From assembly GCF_000011805.1 (NCBI RefSeq), contig NC_006841.2: a stretch of DNA of 32,000 nucleotides; one strand, 5' to 3'. The DNA is from Aliivibrio fischeri ES114 (GTDB taxonomy: Bacteria > Pseudomonadota > Gammaproteobacteria > Enterobacterales > Vibrionaceae). Every line of letters starts with the position of its first letter. The stretch's first letter is position 1. The notes beneath the pieces are model-generated. The model ran no database searches. It saw only the letters and a list, made by a program, of their open reading frames with translations, and was not told the DNA's origin. The translations under genes were made by a program, and so were the position numbers. Of the stretch, positions 1,519-26,234 are shown one piece after another.

Positions 1519-3045
1519 ATGAGTCAAGAACGTTTCTATAGCATCATTACCGATGCCAATTTGTCACCAAAACAAAAATCAAACTACTTAGCATTAGAAG
1601 CTGAAGCAAGTTTGCCTTATATGGAAATTAATACAGAAACTCGCAAAGCAATGGATGACGGCGTTCTTTGTGATATGTTTGAAGGCCATGCCCCTTTTAA
1701 ACCTCGCTATGTATTACCTGATTACGCTAAGTTTTTAACTCAAGGTTCAGAATATTTAGAGTTAAGCCCAGCAGAAAATTTTGATGATGCATTAAATTTA
1801 CTCACCATCATTTATCATCATGTCCCTTCTGTTACTTCTATTCCTGTTTATCTTGGTCAACTTGATACTGTACTTCTGCCTTATGTTGGCGCCCTTAGCG
1901 ATGAAGAAATTTACCAAAAAATAAAACGTTTTTGGATCATGTTAGATCGCACCCTTCCTGATGCATTCATGCACGTAAACATTGGCCCAACGGACAATAT
2001 CATTTGTCGCACCATCTTACGTGTCGATGCTGAACTAAAGCAAATTGCTCCAAACTTGACCTTCATGTATGACGCAGACATCACGCCTGACGACCTACTG
2101 CGCCAAGCGGCATCTAATATTTGTGAATGCAGCAAGCCTCACATTGCTAACTACCCTGTACATGCACAAGCGTATAATAATACAGGCTTTGGCATTGTAA
2201 GTTGTTATAACTCACTGCCTCTTGCTGGTGGCTCAAACACCTTAGTTCGTATGAACTTAAAAGAAGCCGCTAAGAAAGCAGAAAACAAATCCGATTTCGT
2301 TAACCATGTTCTGCCTCATTACTGCAATATCATGTTTGGCTTAATTGAAACTCGTAGTGCTTTCTTACATGAAAAATCAAACTTCTTTGAAGGCTTCTTA
2401 ACTAAAGAAGGCCTTATCAATGAAGACCGCTTTGCCCCCATGTTCGGTATTTACGGCATGGCTGAAGCTGTTGATATTTTGATGGAAAAAGAAGGTATCG
2501 AAGCCAAATATGGTCATGATGAAATCGCAAACCAATTAGGTCATGCGATTTCTAAACAATTATCAGAAATCGTTGATGCGACAGATGTAAAATATGGCTA
2601 TCACGGTAAAGCACTGCTTCATGCTCAAGGTGGTATCAGTTTAGATATCGATGTAACACCAGGGGTTCGTATTCCTTATGGCACAGAACCGGATCCAGTT
2701 AGCTATGTACAAGCAACCGTTGGCCACCACCAATACTACACGTCGGGTATTAGCGATATTTTAACGATTGATGAAACAGTAAAATCAAACCCTGAAGCTA
2801 TGTTTAATTTAGCTAAAGGGGCCTTACAATTAGGTTATCGTGAGTTTACCGCAAACGTTGCTTCAAATGATTTAGTTCGAATCACAGGTTACATGGTGAA
2901 ACTGTCTGATATCGCAAAATACGATGCTGAAGGCTCACGAACCAATACCACTTTCTTAGGGGCAGAAGCGGCGAAAAATACAGAAGTATTAAATCGTACT
3001 CCGCGTGTTGCTGCGTTAGAAACGACACCAACCTACGCTAAGTAA
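1519..3045 (+). CDS. yjjI: YjjI-family glycyl-radical enzyme (substrate unknown)
   Basis: 508-aa ORF whose size and overall sequence resemble E. coli YjjI. A C-terminal glycyl-radical-type motif VRITGYMV is present, with the Gly codon at 2887..2889. An activase gene follows immediately. Confidence 0.8.
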   Translation: MSQERFYSIITDANLSPKQKSNYLALEAEASLPYMEINTETRKAMDDGVLCDMFEGHAPFKPRYVLPDYAKFLTQGSEYLELSPAENFDDALNLLTIIYHHVPSVTSIPVYLGQLDTVLLPYVGALSDEEIYQKIKRFWIMLDRTLPDAFMHVNIGPTDNIICRTILRVDAELKQIAPNLTFMYDADITPDDLLRQAASNICECSKPHIANYPVHAQAYNNTGFGIVSCYNSLPLAGGSNTLVRMNLKEAAKKAENKSDFVNHVLPHYCNIMFGLIETRSAFLHEKSNFFEGFLTKEGLINEDRFAPMFGIYGMAEAVDILMEKEGIEAKYGHDEIANQLGHAISKQLSEIVDATDVKYGYHGKALLHAQGGISLDIDVTPGVRIPYGTEPDPVSYVQATVGHHQYYTSGISDILTIDETVKSNPEAMFNLAKGALQLGYREFTANVASNDLVRITGYMVKLSDIAKYDAEGSRTNTTFLGAEAAKNTEVLNRTPRVAALETTPTYAK

Positions 3046-3053
3046 TTGCATTT

Positions 3054-3965
3054 ATGGTTAACACTGCCCTTTTAAACGGTGATAGCGTCAACTATGAAAA
3101 AACAGGAATGGTCAGTAAAGTGCTGACCTTTTCTTGTGTTGATGGACCGGGTAATCGCCTTGTGATCTTCTTACAAGGCTGTAACTATGACTGCATTACT
3201 TGTCATAACCCTCATACCATTAATCATTGTGACCACTGCGGTGATTGCGTCGCTCATTGCCCTACTAACGCATTAACGTTTGATGACTCACCAAGTCCAA
3301 AAGTCATCTGGAATGAACCTCTGTGTACTCAATGTGACAAATGCATTGATGTTTGCCCAAGTAAATCGAATCCTAAAATCACCCTATATTCGGTTCAACA
3401 ATTACTTGATTTGACCAAAAAACATGCACCTTTTTTAAGTGGAGTAACGGTTTCAGGAGGAGAAGCGACACTGCAACTTCCCTTTATTATTGAGTATTTT
3501 AAAGCAATTAAAGGCACTGATTCGTTACGTCATTTAACCTGTTTTATTGATAGTAACGGCAGCTTATCTGAGCAAGGTTGGAACAAAGTCCTACCTTATT
3601 TAGATGGTGCCATGATTGACTTAAAAGCATGGCAAAATGAAACGCATTTATGGCTCGTTGGTAGAGACAATCATCGAGTATTAAACACAATAAGCCTACT
3701 AACTCAGCACAATAAACTTCATGAAGTACGTTTACTGTATATTCCCAATAAAACCGATTTACTCACTGAAGTGGATGCGGTGAGCGACTATCTAAAAACG
3801 TTACCTGAACACGTTCAGATCCGATTAAACGCCTTTCAACATCACGGCGTTATTGGTGAAGCATTAACGTGGGAAAAATGCAGCAAAACACAAATGGAAG
3901 AATTTGAAGCCAACCTAGTACAAAGATTAGGTCGTAAAGTGATAACTCCATCTATTTATACTTAA
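3054..3965 (+). CDS. yjjW: Glycyl-radical enzyme activase (radical SAM, YjjW-like)
   Basis: FSCVDGPGNRLVIFLQGCNYDCITCHNP contains the radical-SAM CX3CX2C motif. Further Cys clusters (CDHCGDCVAHCP, CTQCDKCIDVCP) are typical of the ferredoxin-like insert of GRE activases. The start is 9 bp after yjjI. An alternative start lies at 3108 (MVSKVL). Confidence 0.8.
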   Translation: MVNTALLNGDSVNYEKTGMVSKVLTFSCVDGPGNRLVIFLQGCNYDCITCHNPHTINHCDHCGDCVAHCPTNALTFDDSPSPKVIWNEPLCTQCDKCIDVCPSKSNPKITLYSVQQLLDLTKKHAPFLSGVTVSGGEATLQLPFIIEYFKAIKGTDSLRHLTCFIDSNGSLSEQGWNKVLPYLDGAMIDLKAWQNETHLWLVGRDNHRVLNTISLLTQHNKLHEVRLLYIPNKTDLLTEVDAVSDYLKTLPEHVQIRLNAFQHHGVIGEALTWEKCSKTQMEEFEANLVQRLGRKVITPSIYT

Positions 3966-6085: not shown

Positions 6086-6808
6086 ATGAACCCAGTTATC
6101 GATACCATTTTAGAGCATTGCTCTATTCGCTCTTTTACTAATGAACCTATCCCTAAAGAACAATTAGATACCATCATCAGCGCTGGTATTGCGGCCTCTT
6201 CTTCTAGCTTGCTCCAAGTCAATTCGATTATTCGAATTACCGATAAGGAAAAACGAAAAGCATTAGTTGAGCTATCAGGAGGCCAACCTTATGTTGAAGG
6301 TGCGGCTGAGTTTCTTGTTTTCTGTATTGATTTTCAACGTCATTATGAAATGAACCCAGAGATCAAAGCCGAATTTACCGAACTTACTCTTATTGGTGCT
6401 GTTGATGCAGGTATTATGGCGCAAAATTGTCTTTTAGCTGCAGAATCTATGGGATTAGGAGGTGTGTATATCGGTGGGTTACGTACAAACGCACAAGGCG
6501 TAGATGATTTATTAGAACTGCCAAAAAACACAGCTGTTTTGTTTGGTATGTGCCTAGGTTACCCAAATCAAGCGCCTCAAAAAAAGCCACGTTTAAGTCC
6601 TGATGTTATTGTTCATGAAAATACTTATCAGCCGCTGGATAAAAGTAAAATTGATGAATATGACGAAATAATGCAAAGCTATTATGCAAGGCGTTCAACA
6701 AACCAAAAACAAAGTTCATGGTCAGAACAAATTACAGGAAAACTGTCGCAAGAATCTCGCCCTCACATTAAAGGCTACTTAAATAATAAAGGTCTAGCTA
6801 TTAAGTGA
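6086..6808 (+). CDS. nfsA: Oxygen-insensitive NADPH nitroreductase / flavin reductase (NfsA/Frp family)
   Basis: LEHCSIRSFTNEPIPKEQLDTII...SSSSLLQVNSIIRITDKEKRKALVELSGGQPYVEGAAEFLVFCIDFQRH is close to collinear with the E. coli NfsA N-terminal region. The start at 6086 (MNPVIDT) is preferred to 6011. Confidence 0.85.
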   Translation: MNPVIDTILEHCSIRSFTNEPIPKEQLDTIISAGIAASSSSLLQVNSIIRITDKEKRKALVELSGGQPYVEGAAEFLVFCIDFQRHYEMNPEIKAEFTELTLIGAVDAGIMAQNCLLAAESMGLGGVYIGGLRTNAQGVDDLLELPKNTAVLFGMCLGYPNQAPQKKPRLSPDVIVHENTYQPLDKSKIDEYDEIMQSYYARRSTNQKQSSWSEQITGKLSQESRPHIKGYLNNKGLAIK

Positions 6809-6872
6809 TATAAGCATAAATAGAGAAAACAACTAAACTTAAAAACAATAAATACGATTTTAAGGTGTTGTT

Positions 6873-8243
6873 ATGCTTTCTATCTTTGATATTTTCAAAA
6901 TTGGTGTTGGTCCATCAAGTTCTCATACTAATGGACCAATGATTGCGGGTTATCATTTTACTCAACTGATTGAGCCCTACTTACCTCAAATAACACGCAT
7001 TCAAGTCGATCTTTATGGCTCTCTTTCATTAACAGGTATAGGGCACCATACTGATCGTGCAACGCTTCTGGGTTTACTTGGAAACAAACCCGATACGATA
7101 AAAATAACCAGTGCTAATCGCACTATGCGTAAGGCAATAGAAGAACATGCCCTCCAACTCTCTGGCAAATCAACCATCTCCTTCGATTATGAAACGGACA
7201 TGTTGTTTCATAAAACGAATTTACCTCTTCATGAAAATGGCATGACTATTTCTGCTTTTACTACTGATAATAAACAAATTGCAATCGAAACATATTACTC
7301 TGTTGGCGGCGGTTTCATCGCAACCGAAAGCGAGCTTAAAAATGAAAATCAAACACCAGAAATCAAAGTAGAATTCCCTTTTAGCTCTGCGGATGAAATG
7401 CTAGAAAAAGCAGAAAAGCATGGACTCAGCCTAAGTGGATTAGTCTTACGTAACGAAGTCTCATTCCAATCAATAGAAGCAATTAACTCTAAAGCAGACC
7501 AAATCTGGAAAGTCATGTCCCTTTGCATGGAAAGAGGCTTTCAAACTGAAGGCATTCTTGAAGGTGGCTTAAATGTCACCCGTAGAGCACCGGCATTACT
7601 CAAAAAATTAGAAGTGAATACATCCACACATAATGACCCTATGGAAGTATTAGATTGGGTGAATCTGTTTGCTTTTGCCGTTAGCGAAGAAAATGCAGCG
7701 GGAGGTCAGGTTGTAACCTCCCCAACTAACGGTGCAGCAGGTGTGATCCCAAGTGTTTTGATGTACTACCACAAATTTATTAAACCCTTAGACACTAAGC
7801 AACTTAAAGACTTTTTAGCCGTATCGGGTGCTATCGGTATTTTATACAAAACTAACGCCTCTATCTCTGGAGCCGAAGTTGGTTGCCAAGGCGAAGTTGG
7901 TGTGTCGTCCTCCATGGCGGCCGCTGGGCTAACATCGCTTCTTGGTGGCAGTAATGAACAAATTTGCATGGCCGCTGAAATTGCAATGGAACATTCCTTA
8001 GGCATGACTTGTGACCCCATTGGGGGACTGGTTCAGGTTCCTTGTATCGAACGAAACGCAATGGGAGCAATGAAAGCCATAAATGCTTCACGTATGGCGT
8101 TAAAGCGCACAAGCAAATGCTTAATCTCACTAGATAAAGTCATTGAGACCATGTACCAAACAGGAAAAGACATGAATAAGAAATATCGAGAAACTTCATT
8201 AGGAGGATTGGCTTTAATTCATATGGCTCCTCCTTGTGAGTAA
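6873..8243 (+). CDS. sdaA: L-serine ammonia-lyase (L-serine dehydratase, 4Fe-4S type)
   Basis: The characteristic N-terminus MLSIFDIFKIGVGPSSSHTNGPM is present. The protein is 456 aa with a fused beta/alpha arrangement. An aaggtg SD precedes the ATG. Confidence 0.9.
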   Translation: MLSIFDIFKIGVGPSSSHTNGPMIAGYHFTQLIEPYLPQITRIQVDLYGSLSLTGIGHHTDRATLLGLLGNKPDTIKITSANRTMRKAIEEHALQLSGKSTISFDYETDMLFHKTNLPLHENGMTISAFTTDNKQIAIETYYSVGGGFIATESELKNENQTPEIKVEFPFSSADEMLEKAEKHGLSLSGLVLRNEVSFQSIEAINSKADQIWKVMSLCMERGFQTEGILEGGLNVTRRAPALLKKLEVNTSTHNDPMEVLDWVNLFAFAVSEENAAGGQVVTSPTNGAAGVIPSVLMYYHKFIKPLDTKQLKDFLAVSGAIGILYKTNASISGAEVGCQGEVGVSSSMAAAGLTSLLGGSNEQICMAAEIAMEHSLGMTCDPIGGLVQVPCIERNAMGAMKAINASRMALKRTSKCLISLDKVIETMYQTGKDMNKKYRETSLGGLALIHMAPPCE

Positions 8244-15601: not shown

Positions 15602-16138
15602 ATGGCACTTAAAGCATCTGGAAATATTGGTGAACTTTCATACCCATTCATTTTTGAAGACAGCCCATTATGCGACTTTGAAATCTTAACGGATGAATTA
15701 TGTGCCTATACTGGCTTAGCGTTATCACAAATAACTAATCAAGAAGTCCGTGAATCGCTAGAACGTCTACAACCAAAAATATTTCACCTTAATGGCTCGA
15801 TTCGTGGGAAATGTGGCATCTTTGAGCAGGACGTTCAAGAACTCGTGTCTGAAATGTTTTACTTTAAAGAACAAGTTCATGACAAAGGTAAGCGCTTTGT
15901 TCTTCCTCGTGGAGCCGGCCCTGTAATTCAACTTCATCAATGCCGTAGCTTAAGTAAAAAAGTGGTTCGCGCCTTAGTCCTAATTGACAAATTAACCAAT
16001 AAAACCATCCCAGAAACACTTCCTCGTTTTGCAAATGCGCTCGCTAATTATTATTTCGTGCTTACACGAGTACTAAATCAAGACATGAACATTGATGAAC
16101 CTGAATATATAAGCATTAACTATCCAAAGCCTGAATAA
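15602..16138 (+). CDS. ATP:cob(I)alamin adenosyltransferase, PduO-type (probable)
   Basis: Three PduO-family blocks are matched: SGNIGELS (TGDKGETS), FEILTDELCAYTGLA (EAYGTVDELNSxIGLA) and FVLPRGAGPVIQLHQCRSLSKKVVRALV (FILPGG..A..LHxAR...RRAER). Its position next to a B12 riboswitch supports the call. Confidence 0.6.
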   Translation: MALKASGNIGELSYPFIFEDSPLCDFEILTDELCAYTGLALSQITNQEVRESLERLQPKIFHLNGSIRGKCGIFEQDVQELVSEMFYFKEQVHDKGKRFVLPRGAGPVIQLHQCRSLSKKVVRALVLIDKLTNKTIPETLPRFANALANYYFVLTRVLNQDMNIDEPEYISINYPKPE

Positions 16139-16362
16139 ATCAAATATTATGTAAATACATCGTTAAGTGAATTATGAAAAAGAATATTAATAATAGGAAC
16201 TATAATATTCTCTTTCATTATCAATGGTAGTAACACGATACAGGTCAATGCAACTCTATTTATAGCCTTTAATTATATTGATAGCGAACCTCATATATTA
16301 TAAAGTCCACCTCAATTGTTACAGTCATGCAATAAATGACTTTTTTGTTAAACTTAGGTTAA

Positions 16363-17964
16363 TTGATTAAAGTGATTACATTTGGTAAGTCCAATAAATT
16401 ATTTTTTTGGCCACGCTTTATCGTTTTATTTACAATATTAAATATCTTGTTATTTTCAGTATTTTATTTTTACAAATACTCACAAAACCAGATAGAGATA
16501 AGTAAAATAAAATCAGAACAAAGTGCTCTAATTTCAGCACAAAAAAAATACATTGCAATGACCCTAAACAGCATAGGGCAAGATTTACTGCTGCTTTCTG
16601 ATTTCATTGAAATTAACAAAGCATACCAAAAGCACGAACGTAAACTCATTAAACTAGCTGAAATGAACACGCTCGCTCTGAGCTTACGTAAAGGACTTTA
16701 TGATCAATTAAGATACCTTGATCTTGAAGGTAATGAGCTCATTCGTATTAACTATAATAATGGCATTCCAAGTGTTGTTACAGGAAATGAATTACAAAAT
16801 AAATTTGACCGTTATTATTTTCAAGACAGCTTATCTTTAAATGATGGGGATATTTACGTTTCTATTTTAGATTTAAATATTGAGCATGGTGAAATCGAAG
16901 AACCTTATAAACCTATGATTCGTCTAGCTACGCCTGTATATGATGATCAGGGAAATAAAAGAGGTATCGTTATATTAAATTACCTTGCAGCGCATTTATT
17001 AGATGGTCTAAAACTATTTTCTTTGGATAAAAGAAACCATCACATGCTAATAAACAGTAATAATTACTTTTTATTTTATGATAAAAGACCAGACCTTGAA
17101 TTTGCTTTCATGTTTAATGAAGACGAAAGTAAAACCTATCCTGCGATTTACCCAATAACTTATTCTTGTATTGAGAAAGAACCTAAAGGTCAATATGAAA
17201 TAGGTTCAGGAATTTTAACGTTCGATTCTGTATTTGCTTATCCAAAAAATTTAGATTCAGCAAAATCAGTCAAAATTGTTAAAAAAGACTCATGCTGGCG
17301 CTTAATCACTTTTGTTCCTAATTACCCTAAGTGGTCAATTGAGCGAATCTCAAGCAGTGAGATAATTCTTGTTGGTTGTTTTATTTTACTTTCTTTCATT
17401 GTATCGCTGGTTATAACTCAATTACAGCTAAAGAAAAAAATTGATCACAACGAAATAAAGAAATTAGCTCACCACGATAGTCTGACAGGCCTAATCAACC
17501 GTGGATACTTTAAAAAACTGTTTCATTGGAAAATGCAAAAAGCACGAAAAAATGAAACTAAATTAGCTTTGATCTACATTGATTTAGATGGATTTAAAGA
17601 TCTCAATGACAACTTTGGCCACAGTGCTGGTGATTTGGCATTAAAGGCAGTAGCTCGAAATCTATACAGCACTTTCTCAGAAAATAGTTACGTCGCTCGA
17701 TTAGGTGGTGATGAATTTGCCGTACTTATTCATACCGTTATTGATGAAGAAGAGATATTTGCTCTTGTTGAGGAATTTTTAGAAAGTAGTAATACTCCAT
17801 TAATGCTTGAAGATATTCCATATCAACTAAGCACGAGTATTGGCTTAGCTTTCTTCCCTGAACATGGTCGCTCCATTAACGAGTTAATGCATAATGCCGA
17901 TGCGGCAATGTATGACATCAAACGCTCAGGAAAGAATGGATTTAAAGTATTTGAAAAGCTATGA
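16363..17964 (+). CDS. Membrane-bound diguanylate cyclase (GGDEF) with a large periplasmic sensor domain
   Basis: Two TM segments (about residues 15-37 and 333-355) bracket a domain of about 295 aa. The C-terminal GGDEF domain carries RLGGDEFAV. No RxxD I-site is present at the usual offset. The start is non-ATG (TTG 16363 or GTG 16372). Confidence 0.85.
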   Translation: MIKVITFGKSNKLFFWPRFIVLFTILNILLFSVFYFYKYSQNQIEISKIKSEQSALISAQKKYIAMTLNSIGQDLLLLSDFIEINKAYQKHERKLIKLAEMNTLALSLRKGLYDQLRYLDLEGNELIRINYNNGIPSVVTGNELQNKFDRYYFQDSLSLNDGDIYVSILDLNIEHGEIEEPYKPMIRLATPVYDDQGNKRGIVILNYLAAHLLDGLKLFSLDKRNHHMLINSNNYFLFYDKRPDLEFAFMFNEDESKTYPAIYPITYSCIEKEPKGQYEIGSGILTFDSVFAYPKNLDSAKSVKIVKKDSCWRLITFVPNYPKWSIERISSSEIILVGCFILLSFIVSLVITQLQLKKKIDHNEIKKLAHHDSLTGLINRGYFKKLFHWKMQKARKNETKLALIYIDLDGFKDLNDNFGHSAGDLALKAVARNLYSTFSENSYVARLGGDEFAVLIHTVIDEEEIFALVEEFLESSNTPLMLEDIPYQLSTSIGLAFFPEHGRSINELMHNADAAMYDIKRSGKNGFKVFEKL

Positions 17965-20977: not shown

Positions 20978-21138
20978 TGCTGTTTGTAGTAAGATTCTAT
21001 CGTAAATAATACTATTAAATATTAGAGTTGTCTTATTTATATTAGTTTGTTTAAACAATCAACATATCACGTCGAAAATGAAATAAAAAGACGTAATTAA
21101 ATTCCAAAATCAATTTATTACACTTAAATAAATAAAAC

Positions 21139-21177
21139 GATGAGCACGTACTATATTTATAATAATACATGCTCATC
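21139..21177. repeat. Inverted repeat (11/12 bp arms) upstream of the Mor-like gene
   Basis: gatgagcacgta (21139-21150) and tacatgctcatc (21166-21177) are separated by a 15-nt AT spacer. The repeat lies about 105 bp upstream of the ATG at 21283. Confidence 0.4.
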
Positions 21178-21282
21178 AATTGGAGAGCATTGCTAATAGG
21201 GAAATACTTCCTCATAGCCATTATTACTGTAAACTGATTTGATTACACCTCCTTATTAATCCCCTAAAAAAAGGAGTAAATA

Positions 21283-21666
21283 ATGCAGAAAAAAAGTAAT
21301 GATCTCATTAAACAATATCTATTAAATACAAATGTCGAAACACTACCAAAACAGCTAAAAGAATTGGTTGAACTAATTGGACCAATTGATACATATATAT
21401 TTATTAGCCACTACGGAGGGCAAATAAAATACATAGCAAAAAATCCATCAAGAACAAAAATGAAACATATAATGAACGAAAAAGCACTTAAACATCTGTG
21501 TGCCAATTACGGAGGGTCAACAATCGAAGTACCAAAACAAGAACATTTAGAGCGGCAAATTAGAAATAAATTAATAAAAAATGCGAGTATGAAAGGTATT
21601 TCACGCTCACAATTAGCGACTCAATTCAATCTAAGCGTTAGGCATATCGGTAATATAAAAAAATAG
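21283..21666 (+). CDS. Mor/C-family (phage Mu middle/late activator-like) transcriptional regulator
   Basis: The 127-aa protein compares with Mu Mor at 129 aa. ANYGGSTIEVPKQEHLERQIRNKLIKNASMKGISRSQLATQFNLSVRHIGNIKK aligns with Mor HLGGGQVYIPRGQALDSLIRDLRIWNDFNGRNVSELTTRYGVTFNTVYKAIRR. A strong aaggag SD is present. Confidence 0.7.
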   Translation: MQKKSNDLIKQYLLNTNVETLPKQLKELVELIGPIDTYIFISHYGGQIKYIAKNPSRTKMKHIMNEKALKHLCANYGGSTIEVPKQEHLERQIRNKLIKNASMKGISRSQLATQFNLSVRHIGNIKK

Positions 21667-21670
21667 CGGT

Positions 21671-21701
21671 TTTAGGGGGAAGTCATATCATTCCCCCTAA
21701 A
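21671..21701 (-). terminator. Hairpin between the convergent Mor-like gene and the minus-strand operon
   Basis: ttagggggaa (21672-21681) pairs with ttccccctaa (21691-21700). On the minus strand a T7 run follows 7 nt later, which is non-canonical spacing. Confidence 0.45.
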
Positions 21702-21704
21702 TAG

Positions 21705-21977
21705 TTAAAGTACAGGTTTTCTTTTAAATCCTATATGATAAGCAACATGTTGAGATATAACTGTATTTTCTCCTATTTTTATCACTTTAAATCCAGAATC
21801 TTTACCAATCAAAATACCTTTAGGGTGAATATCTAAGTAATGATTCAATTTATCTATTTGTCGTTGCATAAAATCATCATCATCAGGATTGTTGGGGTTA
21901 TAACGACCAATAACTATCCGTTCGATATAACGAACATCCGTTAAATCTAAAACAGAGGAGTTCCTATCTGATAGCAT
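21705..21977 (-). CDS. Hypothetical 90-aa protein, third gene of the islet minus-strand operon
   Basis: The ORF starts 20 bp after the upstream gene, with an aagg SD. It has an acidic patch (NPNNPDDDDF) and a beta-rich C-terminus. I recognise no family. Confidence 0.6.
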   Translation of the reverse strand: MLSDRNSSVLDLTDVRYIERIVIGRYNPNNPDDDDFMQRQIDKLNHYLDIHPKGILIGKDSGFKVIKIGENTVISQHVAYHIGFKRKPVL

Positions 21978-21997
21978 ATTTTATTGCCTTATTTTAT

Positions 21998-22849
21998 TTA
22001 TGCAGCACTCTTACTTTCTTTTATATTTGCATCTTTTTCATCTTGCAAGGCCATATTTGCTTGTTGTAACTCTATTTCAGCATCTACAACCGCTATATTT
22101 GATTCATTTACCTTTTTTTCTAATTCACTTGTATCACTTTTCGGGTTCTTTAACTTACTTTGTTCTAGTTTCATTTGCTGTAAAGTCAAATCAGCTTTAG
22201 CCTTGGCTACTTTTTTTCGAGCCTGAGCGACTGCAATTGCACGCTGACCACTCGCCTTCACCTTACCGGAGCGCTCAATAGACTTTGGTGCAACTGACCC
22301 TCCTATAATATCTAATACACGCATCAATCCCTCAGGAGTTCCAGATTGTGATGCATGCACAGCAACATGATATTTGGCAGAATTATCGCTTGATCGAGTA
22401 TTTTCTTTATGTGATGCAACACTTCCTGAAACACTAGCAGTCAAACTAAAAGGTCCCCAACCAACAGATGCTTTAGCTGAAAATTCTCCTTTTTTATCTT
22501 CTGTTTCATGATAAGTTTCTGATGACTTAACTTCCATATCAAATGTAATATCAACCTCATCAACCATTAAACTTGGTACATTTACAATCGCAAGAACAGG
22601 AACTTCTAAACCCACTTTTTCTTGTTCAATAATATCATTATCTAAACCATCCTTGCCTGTAACCACATTTCGTACATACGAAAAATCCGCCGTTCGTGTT
22701 TTTGCACCATCAAAACCAACATTCTGAATAAAATCAACAGTCGAACGTGCTAACATAATTTGTGAGTCACATGCTGCTTTTAAAGGTGAACCAATTAAAC
22801 TTTCCATTGGTAAACCTGAAAATTGATTTTGCATACTTTCTAAAGCCAT
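21998..22849 (-). CDS. Unknown-function protein, long paralogue (DUF2589-like from memory) with a coiled-coil tail
   Basis: 283-aa protein with an aggaaa SD. It contains GLPMESLIGSPLKAACDSQ and VGLEVPVLAIVNVPSLMVDEVDITFDMEV blocks and an amphipathic hairpin FSAKASVGWGPFSLTASVSGSVAS. Residues about 200-283 form a Lys/Glu/Ala/Gln-rich heptad-like tail. Confidence 0.8.
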   Translation of the reverse strand: MALESMQNQFSGLPMESLIGSPLKAACDSQIMLARSTVDFIQNVGFDGAKTRTADFSYVRNVVTGKDGLDNDIIEQEKVGLEVPVLAIVNVPSLMVDEVDITFDMEVKSSETYHETEDKKGEFSAKASVGWGPFSLTASVSGSVASHKENTRSSDNSAKYHVAVHASQSGTPEGLMRVLDIIGGSVAPKSIERSGKVKASGQRAIAVAQARKKVAKAKADLTLQQMKLEQSKLKNPKSDTSELEKKVNESNIAVVDAEIELQQANMALQDEKDANIKESKSAA

Positions 22850-22864
22850 ATTAATTTCCTTTAT

Positions 22865-23413
22865 TTAATGTGAAGTATTAACTTCGGGAGGTGTCATCTC
22901 TGATGACGAATCTGAAACAATTTTTTTAGGTATAATTTGAGTATTAAATTTATCTATAATTTTCATCACACACTCAGGAGCGTCACTTGATTTAAATTTC
23001 ACTTTAAAATCAATAAAATCCTTATTTATTTCACCTTTATTTCGATGACTTGGTGAAATATCTACAATTAATTTTGGATATTTATCTTTAAAATCTTGCT
23101 GTAAATTATCAGTATCAACACCAGTGACTCGAACTGAAAAATCAACACCTAATTCATCAAGATAAAGGCCTTTCGCATCTGTAACTGCGATTAAAGGCAT
23201 AGTTATTTCATGCTCATCATCTAGCATTAACTTGATTGTTTTTGGTTTATATGTGCATTTTTCTTCATCATAATCAAAATATTGTGAAATTAAGTTTTGA
23301 TAGTGAGATAAATTCATATCACTTGCGCTATTAGCTACATAATTTAAACCTCTTATAATTCCATCTAAAAACTGTGGTGAAATCGGTTTATTATTTCTTC
23401 CAAAAATATTCAT
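22865..23413 (-). CDS. Unknown-function protein, short paralogue (DUF2589-like from memory)
   Basis: 182-aa first gene of the operon. It shares three blocks with the downstream gene: HEITMPLIAVTDAKGLYLDELGVDFSVRV, the N-terminal LDGIIRGLNYVANSA, and the C-terminal APECVMKIIDKF. Confidence 0.8.
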   Translation of the reverse strand: MNIFGRNNKPISPQFLDGIIRGLNYVANSASDMNLSHYQNLISQYFDYDEEKCTYKPKTIKLMLDDEHEITMPLIAVTDAKGLYLDELGVDFSVRVTGVDTDNLQQDFKDKYPKLIVDISPSHRNKGEINKDFIDFKVKFKSSDAPECVMKIIDKFNTQIIPKKIVSDSSSEMTPPEVNTSH

Positions 23414-23422
23414 AACATAACC

Positions 23423-23452
23423 TTTATTATTAAATGATGAGAAAATAATAAA
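23423..23452. repeat. Perfect 9-bp inverted repeat in the divergent control region of the islet
   Basis: tttattatt (23423-23431) and aataataaa (23444-23452) flank the 12-nt spacer aaatgatgagaa. The arms are AT-only, so statistical weight is low. Confidence 0.3.
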
Positions 23453-23474
23453 CCATATAATTTTATAAAATAAT

Positions 23475-24932
23475 ATGGAAATAATTCCAAATACTAAAAA
23501 AATTAAAAAAGTACATTTTAGTCAACAAATAAATAATAAGAGTAACTTTATGCTAAAATTAACAAATTTATTCGCTTTTTTATTATTGACACTTGTAATC
23601 ACTACAATCAGTCAATTTATTTTTGTTCCAGAGATAATATATTTAAGTAGTACTAATAATAAATCTAATAAAAATACGTTAGAAAAGATAAAAAAGAGAG
23701 GTTTTTTATTAGTTGCAACAAAGCTTGATGGTGTTGGTTGTTACTATAAACGAGGACAACTTAGAGGTATTGAATGTGAATTATTACAAGAATATGCTAA
23801 CTATCTTGATGTTGAATTAAACATTCTTTTTTTTCCAGACTTACATAGTCTTTTTACGGCATTAGACAATAAAAGGGTTGATATTATAGCTTCAGATCTC
23901 ACACCAAACAATGAACGTAAAAAAAAATTCTTGTTTTCTAATGCATTATTTCATACTGAAGAATGGCTAATACAAAGAAAAGACAACGCTATATCAAATT
24001 TAAAGCAATTAAATGGAAAAACAATTTCTATAAGAAAAGGAACTACTTATAAGGATGTGATCTTAACATTACAACAGGAAATGAACATAAATATTAAAAT
24101 AGAATTACTTCCCGAAACCCTATCAACATTAGAAATCATTAAAGGTGTTGCGAATAGTATTTGGAGCTACACCTTAGCAGATCAACACATTGCACAAAAT
24201 CAACATGCACAATATCCCCAATTAAGCCCACCATTAACAATAGGGCAACCACGAGAAATTAGTCTAGCTTTATTCAAAGATGATAAAGAATTATTATTAC
24301 ACTTAAATTCTTGGCTAGCGAATAAAAAAGCTAAGGATATCCTTAATAAAAAAAATAGAACTGATATAAAAAAACAATATTTAATCACACCTTGGGACAA
24401 TATATTCAAAAAGAATGCTTCTCAACCATTTGATTGGTTATGGTTAACTTCACAGGCTTTCGCTGAATCTTCATTTGATCCAAATGCAATCTCCTCCTCT
24501 GGTGCAAAAGGATTAATGCAATTAATGCCAGAAACAGCGAAAGATATGGGTGTAACGCAATTATTTGATCCAAATGAAAATATTAAAGGTGGCGCAAAAT
24601 ATAATAAATGGCTGTATAAAACCTATTGGAATTATTTACCAGAAAAAGAAGCTCTTGCCTTTACGTTTGCATCTTATAATGCTGGTGTTGGACATATAAT
24701 AGATGCACAAAGATTAGCTTTAAGAAACGGAGATGATCCAAACGTTTGGTTTAATAGTGTTGAAAACCATATTATCAAACTAGAAAAAAAATCCATATTT
24801 ACTCTACCATATATTAAATATGGTTACTGTAGAGGTAGTGAAACCAAATCTTATGTTAGAAAAATCTTTTTTCAAAAAAGAATATATTCTAATAATAAAG
24901 CCCTATTAAATAAACAACATCTAAATAATTAA
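23475..24932 (+). CDS. MltF-like membrane-bound lytic murein transglycosylase (SBP_bac_3-like domain plus SLT domain)
   Basis: The N-terminal domain is collinear with E. coli MltF: IKKRGFLLVAT, GIECELLQEYANYLDVELNI, LFTALDNKRVDIIASDLTPNNERKKKF. The SLT catalytic block is SQAFAESSFDPNAISSSGAKGLMQLMPETAKDMGV, with the Glu codon at 24465..24467. The hydrophobic anchor is LFAFLLLTLVITTISQFIF. The start is either 23475 or, more plausibly, 23550 (MLKLTN). Confidence 0.85.
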   Translation: MEIIPNTKKIKKVHFSQQINNKSNFMLKLTNLFAFLLLTLVITTISQFIFVPEIIYLSSTNNKSNKNTLEKIKKRGFLLVATKLDGVGCYYKRGQLRGIECELLQEYANYLDVELNILFFPDLHSLFTALDNKRVDIIASDLTPNNERKKKFLFSNALFHTEEWLIQRKDNAISNLKQLNGKTISIRKGTTYKDVILTLQQEMNINIKIELLPETLSTLEIIKGVANSIWSYTLADQHIAQNQHAQYPQLSPPLTIGQPREISLALFKDDKELLLHLNSWLANKKAKDILNKKNRTDIKKQYLITPWDNIFKKNASQPFDWLWLTSQAFAESSFDPNAISSSGAKGLMQLMPETAKDMGVTQLFDPNENIKGGAKYNKWLYKTYWNYLPEKEALAFTFASYNAGVGHIIDAQRLALRNGDDPNVWFNSVENHIIKLEKKSIFTLPYIKYGYCRGSETKSYVRKIFFQKRIYSNNKALLNKQHLNN

Positions 24933-24943
24933 GAAGTCATCAT

Positions 24944-26161
24944 ATGAAAAAATATATAACTATTTTATTATTCCCTATGTTTTTATTAATCTCTGGTTGT
25001 TCAGAACAAAAAAAACATTGTGATATTTTTAACGCAGACACCAGTCATATGTCAGAAATTTACAAACACTATTTATTAAAAAAACAGAAAATTGAGCCTC
25101 TATATGAATTAAGAGTCATCGAAATAGATGAAAAAGGATTATTTTTAGAACGCTATAAATTTAATGAATTGAAAAAATACATTAAACAAAAGACACAAAT
25201 AAAAGACACGTTAATTTATATTAAAATAAATGGATGGCAGCATGACACCAGTATTGATGAACTTAGTCTTAATAATTTTAAAAAGCAACTTAATAACATA
25301 AGTAACTACGTCTCAAAAAACAAAAGAGATGTCATTGGAATTTATGTGAAATTAAGAGAAGAAAAAACATCCATGTTTAGATATCTTACATTTTTTAATA
25401 AAAAAAAATCTATCCATCAAGTTTCTAATGGAAATATCATAGAAATATGGAATTTTCTCAAAAAGATAAAAGATAACAGCGTTTCAGATACAAAAATAGT
25501 AACAGTAGGCCATAGCTTTGGAGCAGATATAATATTTAATTTAATGAATATTGACAATAGAGCAGAGTCAAATGAAAATCATAAATATAAAAAAAACTTA
25601 TCAGGTATAGGTAACCTGATACTATTAATCAACCCAACATTTGATGCATTAAAATATGTTGAATTTAGAAAAAGCAATAATAACAAAGAACCTTCAAGTA
25701 AAAACAATCCTATTATATCTATTTTTACATCAGAATCTGACTGGATAACTAAATATGTGCTTCCAGCAGAACGTATCATTAGTAATCTATTTAAGCAACA
25801 TAATTACATGGAGGCGACAATAGGAGAAAACAAAGTATTAATCAATAAAAAAATAGCACAAATAACAAGCATTGGGCATTTTAAACCTTTTATTACCCAT
25901 AGACTTGAAATGACAAACAAAAGTATCAGTTCAACACAATATAATAAACTAATAAAAAATTTAAAATCTGATTTGGTCAATGGAATAAATCCACTTAATT
26001 TCGACAAAACCATATTAGTAAGAAATCCAATAATAAAAGCTAACACCCCTTACTTAGTTGTTCAAGTCGATAAAACTTTGATACCAGACCATAGCAACAT
26101 TTTTGGTAAAGAAATTGAAACATTTTTTCATGACTTTTTATTGCTTTCTATCAATGAATAA
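24944..26161 (+). CDS. Lipoprotein alpha/beta-hydrolase (putative esterase/lipase, Ser-Asp-His)
   Basis: Lipobox LLISGC (Cys19) with Ser at +2. The nucleophile elbow is VTVGHSFGADI (Ser191, codon 25514..25516). The candidate acid is SESDW (D266) and the candidate His is PDHSN (H383). The gene starts 11 bp after the MltF-like gene. Confidence 0.75.
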   Translation: MKKYITILLFPMFLLISGCSEQKKHCDIFNADTSHMSEIYKHYLLKKQKIEPLYELRVIEIDEKGLFLERYKFNELKKYIKQKTQIKDTLIYIKINGWQHDTSIDELSLNNFKKQLNNISNYVSKNKRDVIGIYVKLREEKTSMFRYLTFFNKKKSIHQVSNGNIIEIWNFLKKIKDNSVSDTKIVTVGHSFGADIIFNLMNIDNRAESNENHKYKKNLSGIGNLILLINPTFDALKYVEFRKSNNNKEPSSKNNPIISIFTSESDWITKYVLPAERIISNLFKQHNYMEATIGENKVLINKKIAQITSIGHFKPFITHRLEMTNKSISSTQYNKLIKNLKSDLVNGINPLNFDKTILVRNPIIKANTPYLVVQVDKTLIPDHSNIFGKEIETFFHDFLLLSINE

Positions 26162-26190
26162 ATCCAAACAAAAAAAGTTGTATTATGAAT

Positions 26191-26218
26191 AAAAAGGCAC
26201 TCAATAAAGTGCCTTTTT
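26191..26218. terminator. Bidirectional rho-independent terminator at the right edge of the islet
   Basis: aaaaaggcac (26191-26200) pairs with gtgccttttt (26209-26218) across an 8-nt loop. A- and T-runs on both sides serve the convergent genes. Confidence 0.8.
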
Positions 26219-26234
26219 ATTAACCTATTTTCAA

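Follow-up and report, generated by a model that had tools for sequence, protein, structure and literature searches.

Here, we report that an AT-rich islet of six genes at positions 20981-26190 of a 32,000-nucleotide stretch of Aliivibrio fischeri ES114 DNA (contig NC_006841.2; the whole analyzed stretch is called the window below) is the form that a widespread three-gene cassette, spread by horizontal transfer, takes in A. fischeri; the cassette encodes two paralogous DUF2589 proteins, a divergent A type and a conserved B type, and a 90-amino acid (aa) protein of an unnamed family, called p90 here. Across bacteria, the cassette is coupled to peptidoglycan hydrolases of many unrelated families, and we consider that it may work as a regulated envelope-breaching or release module, which resembles lysis cassettes or type 10 secretion in its logic while lacking a holin; we assign this reading a probability of roughly 0.4. 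A first-pass annotation of the same DNA had proposed an undescribed envelope-acting system at this position, which is right in substance, although the unit and its evolutionary reach turned out to be different. The features of the islet are as follows.

21138-21178, minus strand: terminator-like hairpin beyond mor, a 17-pair stem followed by a T run
21283-21666, plus strand: mor, Mor/C-family transcriptional activator, 127 aa (Pfam PF08765, E = 5e-8; PHROG 836, late transcriptional activator, E = 3e-21)
21705-21977, minus strand: p90, 90 aa, unnamed family; third cassette gene, adjoining the B-type DUF2589 gene in 81/81 of the loci described below
21998-22849, minus strand: B-type (conserved) DUF2589 protein, 283 aa, with a C-terminal coiled-coil tail (PF11655, E = 2e-52)
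22865-23413, minus strand: A-type (divergent) DUF2589 protein, 182 aa, first gene of the minus-strand operon (PF11655, E = 2.5e-37)
23414-23549, no strand: AT-rich divergent control region, holding the palindrome TGGAAATAATTCCA at 23476-23489
23550-24932, plus strand: MltF-like lytic transglycosylase paralogue, 460 aa, SBP_bac_3 and SLT domains, N-terminal signal anchor; the longest open reading frame (ORF) starts at 23475
24944-26161, plus strand: lipoprotein, 405 aa, probable alpha/beta serine hydrolase, with lipobox LISGC and the motifs HGW, GHSFG, SExDW, and PxH
26188-26221, no strand: bidirectional terminator hairpin, a 14-pair stem between an A run and a T run; right border

Briefly, a profile of the B-type DUF2589 protein was run against one genome per species (185,579 species) and returned 459 coding matches; the best 80 of these together with one A. 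fischeri locus make up the 81 non-redundant loci on which our counts are based. The A-type gene, the B-type gene, and p90 are present in 81/81 loci, on one strand and usually in the order A, B, p90, and the three islet genes (two DUF2589 paralogues and a p90 of about 90 aa, adjacent and on the same strand) belong to the same arrangement. There are two DUF2589 copies in 80 loci and three in one, and in 24 loci a third protein encoded after p90 is a further A-like paralogue (hhalign probability, 97%). The cassette spans at least seven bacterial phyla: its hosts include Vibrionaceae, Aeromonas, Plesiomonas, Rheinheimera, Luteibacter, Rhodanobacter, the Pseudomonas putida group, sphingomonads, Oxalobacteraceae, Myxococcota, Desulfobacterota, Fusobacteria, Fibrobacteres, Negativicutes, Lachnospiraceae, Oscillospiraceae, and Bacteroides, and the arrangement is unchanged in monoderm and diderm bacteria. 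Identity to the A. fischeri B protein is 50-61% across phyla, that to p90 is 29-48%, and that to the A protein is about 25% where detectable.

The two islet paralogues, which had first been described as related proteins of no recognizable function encoded in one minus-strand operon with a 90-aa protein, are indeed paralogues and belong to DUF2589 (PF11655; 178 and 129 bits against a cutoff of 23). They share about 19% identity, and the A-type and B-type profiles match each other with an hhalign probability of 98%. p90 was also considered as a shortened DUF2589 protein, which was rejected (hhalign probability, <1%); its family comprises 86 clusters at 50% identity, nearly all of them stand-alone proteins of about 80-110 aa, and it has no match in Pfam, NCBIfam, PHROG, PADLOC, or the PDB. 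No match for the DUF2589 proteins was found in NCBIfam and PHROG, the PDB sequence search with the DUF2589 profile was empty, and the islet DUF2589 proteins have neither a transmembrane segment nor a signal peptide; p90 is also without a signal peptide. One locus (L017) encodes a variant of the third paralogue with a C-terminal transmembrane anchor, as read by eye. In the literature, DUF2589 (PF11655) and DUF6765 (encoded beside some cassettes, see below) yielded two incidental mentions in all, both of them a DUF2589 gene listed in transcriptome tables with no function assigned, and a search on V. fischeri Mor together with a lytic transglycosylase gave nothing relevant.

The first-pass annotation held that the six genes of the islet belong together. 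Their linkage stands; the six-gene set as the evolutionary unit does not, the core being the three genes that are found together in every one of the 81 loci. A Mor homologue adjoins the cassette in about ten gammaproteobacterial loci only, i.e., in two Aliivibrio species, V. sonorensis, V. ouci, V. europaeus, a Vibrio metagenome-assembled genome (MAG), Plesiomonas, two Rheinheimera, and an Enterobacterales MAG, and the MltF-like gene and the lipoprotein gene stand beside the cassette in five Vibrionaceae species only, with a mechanosensitive-channel gene between the two in three of the five. The gene-neighborhood check suggested in that annotation therefore does find the six-gene set elsewhere, in these five Vibrionaceae species, and the set is a lineage-specific elaboration of a much older core.

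Three other settings of DUF2589 genes were seen during this survey. In Vibrio europaeus (L089/L090), the six-gene set lies amid genes for an RNase T2, a Peptidase_M91 protein, an Exo_endo_phos protein, and an alpha/beta hydrolase, which are candidate secreted toxins or enzymes, and a 2016-aa TcdA/TcdB-pore protein is encoded about 8 kb from the set. Vibrio cholerae CT 5369-93 (L099, 1295-2131) has a lone B-type DUF2589 gene flanked by a DDE transposase and an integrase, without A-type gene or p90, which looks like a disrupted cassette copy. A giant-virus MAG contig of IMG/VR with 30% G+C (L098, 7959-8546) encodes a lone DUF2589 homologue (42% identity) without p90.

The evidence for an envelope function is the company that the cassette keeps. 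A peptidoglycan hydrolase or peptidoglycan-binding protein is adjacent to it in at least 49 of the 81 loci and comes from at least ten unrelated families; the envelope link suspected in the first-pass annotation is thus real and much stronger than could be foreseen there. The families are distributed as follows.

GH19, mostly with PG_binding_1: 17/81 loci
GH108 with PG_binding_3: 9/81 loci
CHAP: 8/81 loci
SLT/MltF-like: 4/81 loci
VgrG3-like C-terminal lysozyme with LysM: 4/81 loci
Muramidase PF11860 with PG_binding_1: 2/81 loci
GH25: 2/81 loci
GH24: 1/81 loci
PG_binding_1 with a weakly pesticin-like lysozyme (Pfam E = 9e-4, below cutoff): 1/81 loci
Amidase_2: 1/81 loci
PG_binding_1 protein with unknown catalytic part: 1/81 loci

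Loci beyond the 81 show the same pattern (Aeromonas with GH24, Bacteroides with GH25, Rhodanobacter with GH108, V. europaeus with SLT, and a Fibrobacteres-like contig with PG_binding_1). When the interval from -7 to +8 kb was searched with five seeded hydrolase families, all of the matches fell within about 3.4 kb of the cassette, most of them within 2.2 kb, and the outer parts of the interval had no match to these families. Since unrelated hydrolase families replace each other at the same position, which is a classic sign of functional partnership, we consider that cassette and hydrolase work together. Outside the Vibrionaceae, none of the hydrolases has a signal-peptide-like N terminus (0/44), and enzymes of such an endolysin-like build without a signal peptide need a way across the cytoplasmic membrane; a small transmembrane protein is missing from 16 of the 36 operons with a same-strand hydrolase, counting ORFs of at least 60 aa. 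The link between p90 and the hydrolase is made stronger by P0182, a natural fusion of a p90 domain to a GH19 muramidase found on 11 contigs; its GH19 domain shows homology (E = 7e-27) to the GH19 enzymes that are linked to the cassette. The genomic context of a second p90 fusion, P0214, is uninformative.

The P0182 gene itself (L102/L103, 6001-7092; metagenome contigs) has no DUF2589 genes beside it and lies between a large site-specific recombinase and an IS605 TnpB. The GH19 enzymes of cluster c7 in Pseudomonas (L023, 12050-12832; L039, 11989-12771) begin with MCI(T/K)xSVGxGG, i.e., with a Cys at position 2, and have no signal peptide. A 209-aa protein of the Vibrio MAG locus (L010) was examined as a possible lysozyme and is not counted above, as Pfam, BLAST, and the PDB gave no support for it.

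Other genes recur next to the cassette as well. Signal-peptide-less enzymes of other kinds are an astacin-like metallopeptidase (11 sphingomonad loci), DUF6765, patatin, and a colicin-DNase/WHH nuclease. Some proteobacterial operons add a small transmembrane protein, a periplasmic protein of about 130 aa (26 loci), and an EndoU nuclease that is secreted and has a small protein encoded after it. The order of the Pseudomonas operon is DUF2589-A, DUF2589-B, p90, third paralogue, small transmembrane protein, periplasmic protein, GH19. Gut Firmicutes loci add a DUF4231 protein with two transmembrane segments and a tyrosine recombinase, and Bacteroides also adds a recombinase. In one Bacteroides locus (L091), two 36-nt inverted repeats (3489-3524 and 3620-3655), 95 nt apart, stand just upstream of the first DUF2589 gene, and the tyrosine recombinase gene (6544-7359) is just past the GH25 gene; a recombinase follows the cassette in 12 Firmicutes loci. 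The inverted repeats and the recombinase of L091 could be parts of an invertible (phase-variable) promoter.

In A. fischeri, the place of the hydrolase is taken by the MltF-like protein, for which the first description as an MltF-like lytic transglycosylase is backed by its two domains and by a match to P. aeruginosa MltF structures over its full length (PDB 5aa2, E = 5e-37, residues 61-464). Its single hydrophobic segment, LKLTNLFAFLLLTLVI, is the N-terminal signal anchor, the motifs ES...GLMQ...YNAG can be read by eye in the translation, and the SLT domain matches phage lytic proteins in PHROG. The protein reaches 259.8 bits against the NCBIfam MltF equivalog NF008112, under the cutoff of 354; because the score is below this cutoff with the architecture conserved, we regard it as a paralogue and not as the housekeeping enzyme. 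The same arrangement of an SBP_bac_3 regulatory part and an SLT catalytic part extends over the full length in both. In contrast to housekeeping MltF, the islet protein falls under the equivalog cutoff, is AT-rich and islet-encoded, has a signal anchor without a clear lipobox, and is conserved only beside the cassette in Vibrionaceae.

The neighboring lipoprotein had been called a Ser hydrolase, which is borne out as far as the lipobox and the conserved motifs are concerned and not by recognition in databases (no profile-library family and no PDB match). Lipobox and HGW...GHSFG...SExDW...PxH are invariant across the five Vibrionaceae homologues, and since these share just 31-57% identity, the invariance supports an alpha/beta-type serine hydrolase; from these motifs, such an identity is probable. 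In one assembly (GCA_051906255.1; L006, 6868-9300), the MltF-like and lipoprotein genes are each fragmented, while mor and the three cassette genes are intact; the splits could be real pseudogenization or homopolymer sequencing errors in AT-rich DNA.

The plus-strand regulator was correctly described as Mor/C-like, as both the Pfam and the PHROG matches indicate, and its phage homologues in PHROG are late-gene activators; a PDB sequence search with Mor was empty. It is of the same family as the Mor/C late-gene activators of Mu and adjoins its presumed target genes as well, with the difference that it lies outside a prophage and that the presumed targets are non-phage genes. The Mor-type activator probably drives both operons from 23414-23549, a control region which was correctly delimited provided that the MltF-like gene starts at ATG 23550. 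No good sigma-70 promoter was matched in the control region, which is consistent with activator dependence. The palindrome TGGAAATAATTCCA has a single exact match in the whole window, and the block around it is kept between A. fischeri and Aliivibrio sp. EL58 where the neighboring sequence has diverged. It overlaps the ATG of the longest MltF ORF (485 aa), which speaks for a spurious longer start. We rejected the palindrome as a Mor site common to the loci, for it recurs in Aliivibrio only and is absent from the equivalent region of the other Vibrio loci.

mor and the DUF2589 operon converge; their stops (21666 for mor, 21705 for p90) lie 38 bp apart, a gap in which we detected no terminator, and the hairpin at 21138-21178 is likely the end of the minus-strand DUF2589 operon. 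Because this minus-strand terminator sits past mor, the operon transcript would run antisense to mor, and the antisense transcript could feed back on mor via transcriptional interference.

Taken together, the exchangeable hydrolase family, the endolysin-like enzymes without signal peptides, the p90-muramidase fusion, and the frequent absence of a holin are the reasons why we favor an envelope-breach module that works with a wall hydrolase. In such a module, the Mor-type activator would act at the common AT-rich control region to switch on both divergent operons, and three soluble, signal-peptide-less proteins would gather on the inner side of the cytoplasmic membrane, which they would perturb or open. 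p90 would be the partner or adaptor of the wall hydrolase, which would cut peptidoglycan locally and which in A. fischeri would be the Sec-exported, membrane-anchored MltF-like transglycosylase together with the lipoprotein as an esterase. The outcome would be a controlled breach of the envelope, by which part of the population could lyse, or cell contents or fragments of peptidoglycan could be released. A more specific form of this proposal, which we put forward tentatively and regard as rather doubtful, is that DUF2589-A, DUF2589-B, and p90 form a holin-independent apparatus that moves folded, signal-peptide-less envelope-degrading enzymes across the cytoplasmic membrane, or opens this membrane, as a new lysis/release class common to monoderms and diderms of at least seven phyla; in A. 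fischeri, it would have been adapted to drive an additional lytic transglycosylase, with a Mor-type activator in control.

If true, this would be a new, holin-free solution for getting wall-degrading enzymes and large signal-peptide-less proteins out of the cytoplasm, and it would assign a function to DUF2589 and to the unnamed p90 family, which are present in gut Firmicutes, Bacteroides, soil Pseudomonas, sphingomonads, and marine vibrios. A peptidoglycan monomer released by A. fischeri acts as a morphogen on the squid host; a further lytic transglycosylase module under separate regulation in this bacterium could bear on symbiotic signaling or vesicle release. The cassette is small (three to six genes) and therefore directly testable by heterologous expression.

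Type 10 secretion systems and phage lysis cassettes combine a holin with an endolysin-type hydrolase, with or without a spanin, as in Serratia ChiWXYZ, the Yersinia entomophaga lysis cassette, and C. difficile TcdE/TcdL (PMC10847048, PMC9527704, PMC10109510). The DUF2589 loci are alike in being a small gene set tied to a hydrolase that is usually without a signal peptide and whose family is freely exchanged, in the dedicated activator at the islet, and in the envelope breach or release that would be the expected outcome. They differ in that there is no holin in the A. fischeri islet, nor in many other DUF2589 loci, and in that the core is three soluble proteins without a known fold, which are highly conserved, unlike holins, and are almost never found in phages. 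None of the six islet proteins is a small protein with one to three transmembrane helices, as a holin would be, and the small ORFs with a transmembrane-like stretch are all inside other genes. A dedicated peptidoglycan hydrolase is present in the MltF-like SLT enzyme, which has its own export signal, unlike most endolysins; as for a spanin pair or an outer-membrane lipoprotein partner, the islet does encode a lipoprotein, which at 405 aa is, however, far larger than an o-spanin and looks hydrolase-like. What is new is the conserved DUF2589/p90 core without a defining holin, and the logic resembles that of the known lysis cassettes and of type 10 secretion. Of the three hypotheses in the first-pass annotation, i.e., defence or abortive infection, peptidoglycan-assisted release with type-10-like logic, and a degraded Mu-like module, release fits best, and we agree with it that the islet is no named defence, secretion, toxin-antitoxin, or lysis system: no PADLOC system and no NCBIfam or PHROG match was obtained for the DUF2589 proteins or p90, and PHROG had no match for the lipoprotein either.

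In mycobacteriophage Ms6, a small soluble protein, Gp1, is encoded beside the endolysin LysA, is required for LysA to reach the wall, and acts with Sec. The p90-GH19 fusion suggests a similarly direct partnership of protein and endolysin; Gp1 differs in being Sec-linked and without DUF2589 partners, and no sequence relationship is expected.

Several points weigh against an envelope-breaching module. The DUF2589 proteins have no transmembrane segment, and there is no direct evidence of membrane contact; the conservation of the B type across phyla is unlike that of holins, which are very diverse in sequence. About 40% of the loci have no recognized wall hydrolase, and some of these have an astacin-like peptidase, DUF6765, patatin, or a nuclease instead. 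The small transmembrane and periplasmic proteins in several Pseudomonas operons could be true holin-like and spanin-like parts, and the A. fischeri transglycosylase, having its own signal anchor, needs no help in crossing the membrane. For the B protein, AlphaFold2 (AF2) gave poor models, first with 25 and then with 127 input sequences (mean predicted local distance difference test [pLDDT] of 64 and 63, respectively), and Foldseek searches with them gave no significant match to the PDB or to viral folds.

Both AF2 models show a long helix at the N terminus (15-45), a beta-hairpin (53-84), additional long strands, and a helix at 173-185. The conserved residues 109-154, which take in part of the most conserved motif of the family, ENTRSSDNSAKYH, have a pLDDT below 50 in both. 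The strands of the modeled B protein are amphipathic, and the most hydrophobic element of the DUF2589 family is the conserved motif VPLLAIVKVPxL; both are compatible with a protein that acts on membranes or assembles with itself, and no proof of it. In bacterial gasdermins and in beta-pore-forming toxins, proteins that are likewise soluble and without transmembrane segments turn amphipathic beta-hairpins into membrane pores, and some DUF2589 loci have an adjacent protease; on the other side, DUF2589 has no significant match to them (all Foldseek hits with E > 0.1 and TM-score < 0.2), and we take this likeness as a lead only.

Of the remaining alternatives, we regard one as the best, though as improbable: the DUF2589 A/B-p90 complex may be the cargo, self-assembling or toxic, released by the neighboring hydrolase with small membrane proteins where present, as in type 10 export of Tc toxins or chitinases. 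The order of the Pseudomonas operon resembles a cargo followed by a lysis cassette, strong conservation and paralogous subunits are typical of self-assembling structural proteins, and failure of AF2 on the most conserved region is frequent for parts that fold only on assembly, which would suit such a protein. However, the p90-GH19 fusion links a cassette protein directly to the enzyme, the 16 of 36 hydrolase operons have no candidate holin, and a target or receptor-binding domain is not evident, so that we prefer an active part of the cassette in breaching the envelope.

It is also conceivable, and in our opinion unlikely, that the cassette delivers or secretes antibacterial effectors, with the adjacent muramidases, amidases, phospholipases, proteases, and nucleases being polymorphic toxins against competitors. 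The partners do match interbacterial effector classes (VgrG3-like lysozyme, CHAP, the weakly pesticin-like protein, patatin, EndoU, and the colicin-DNase/WHH nuclease), and the small conserved protein after EndoU could be an immunity protein. But the only recurrent periplasmic protein (cluster c4) accompanies unrelated hydrolase families, unlike a specific immunity protein, most of the hydrolase partners are without an adjacent secreted immunity candidate, EndoU has a signal peptide of its own, and no membrane channel or ATPase is present.

The G+C content of the islet is 0.291 as against 0.377 for the remaining window, the minimum among 164 other 5.2-kb windows being 0.350, and the G+C at third codon positions (GC3) is 0.15-0.23 across the six islet genes vs 0.26-0.33 in the flanking genes. 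The drop in composition that had been noticed between the MORN-repeat gene and the terminator is borne out by these computations, and the hand counts on which it rested (16, 26, and 35 G+C in the 60-nt lines at 25021, 9721, and 7861) are exact, with the deoD and sdaA labels correct. ORFs, strands, and spacers (15, 20, and 11 bp) of the six genes all agree with the earlier description, and the right-border hairpin, given before as 26191-26218, is a bidirectional terminator of slightly larger extent (see the list above). No tRNA, flanking direct repeat, integrase, or transposase is present, as was also noted, and no Rfam element either. With genomic islands, the islet thus shares the deviant composition; integrase, tRNA target, flanking direct repeats, and variable presence among strains were not found. 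The islet is present in 24/24 A. fischeri contigs that were read with the exact flanking DJ-1 protein, at the same locus in six A. fischeri assemblies, and also in Aliivibrio sp. EL58 (L007), in which the islet and the left flank are syntenic and blastn homology stops at 26159, the right border. An island that varies among A. fischeri strains, as had been considered, does not agree with this.

Relative to Aliivibrio sp. EL58, the ratio of nonsynonymous to synonymous substitutions (dN/dS) is 0.08-0.29 for all six genes, i.e., they are under purifying selection, and the three cassette proteins are identical among A. fischeri strains, where the flanking proteins differ by 1-4%; both argue that the islet genes are functional and not decaying. 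In the same comparison, the dS of the two DUF2589 genes (21998-23413) is 0.43-0.47 vs 1.1-2.7 for the flanking genes, which could be due to extreme codon/AT constraint or to a more recent cassette exchange.

An abortive-infection module that kills the phage-infected cell via membrane permeabilization and wall degradation was among the first hypotheses, and we find it improbable, without positive evidence. Its patchy, horizontally spread distribution, the low G+C in A. fischeri, the restriction, Abi or OLD-like genes or integrases near some loci, and a phage-type late activator that could respond to infection would all suit such a module. Yet the islet proteins matched no PADLOC model (PADLOC-DB v2) beyond a weak, spurious coiled-coil match to PbeC (E = 0.004, 13.8 bits), a sensor or NTPase component is missing, defence proteins are typically much less conserved than the B protein, and the islet, constant among the A. 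fischeri contigs, lies outside any variable defence island.

Even less probable to us is that the hydrolase opens peptidoglycan locally for the building of a DUF2589-based structure through the wall, like the transglycosylases of secretion systems, pili, and flagella. Envelope-spanning machines do have dedicated lytic transglycosylases, e.g., VirB1 and EtgA, and the Sec-exported, membrane-anchored enzyme of A. fischeri is of the class that such machines use; outside the Vibrionaceae, however, the partner enzymes are of the endolysin type and have no signal peptide, the cassette encodes neither a membrane component nor an ATPase or secretin-like protein, and its arrangement does not change between monoderm and diderm bacteria.

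A decayed Mu-like prophage remnant with a late activator and lysis genes but no present function, which the first-pass annotation had also raised, is largely refuted and very improbable: the Mor/C-family activator, the AT-rich region, and the SLT domain with its phage matches agree with it, but the six genes are under purifying selection with cassette proteins identical across strains, no phage structural or other lysis gene, integrase, transposase, or att-like repeat is found nearby, and DUF2589 is essentially absent from phage collections (1/50,697 phage genomes and 3/2.9 million IMG/VR viral contigs, with 8/72,556 plasmids).

Two other parts of the window may be mentioned. A second patch of low G+C (0.28-0.32) at 16001-17500 covers an intergenic region and the 5' half of a GGDEF sensor gene (16363-17964), whose called length differs between strains (468 vs 530 aa). 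At 1519-3965, unrelated to the islet, a YjjI-family glycyl radical enzyme and its YjjW activase are encoded (774.7 and 409.6 bits, both over the cutoffs), an enzyme pair of unknown substrate.

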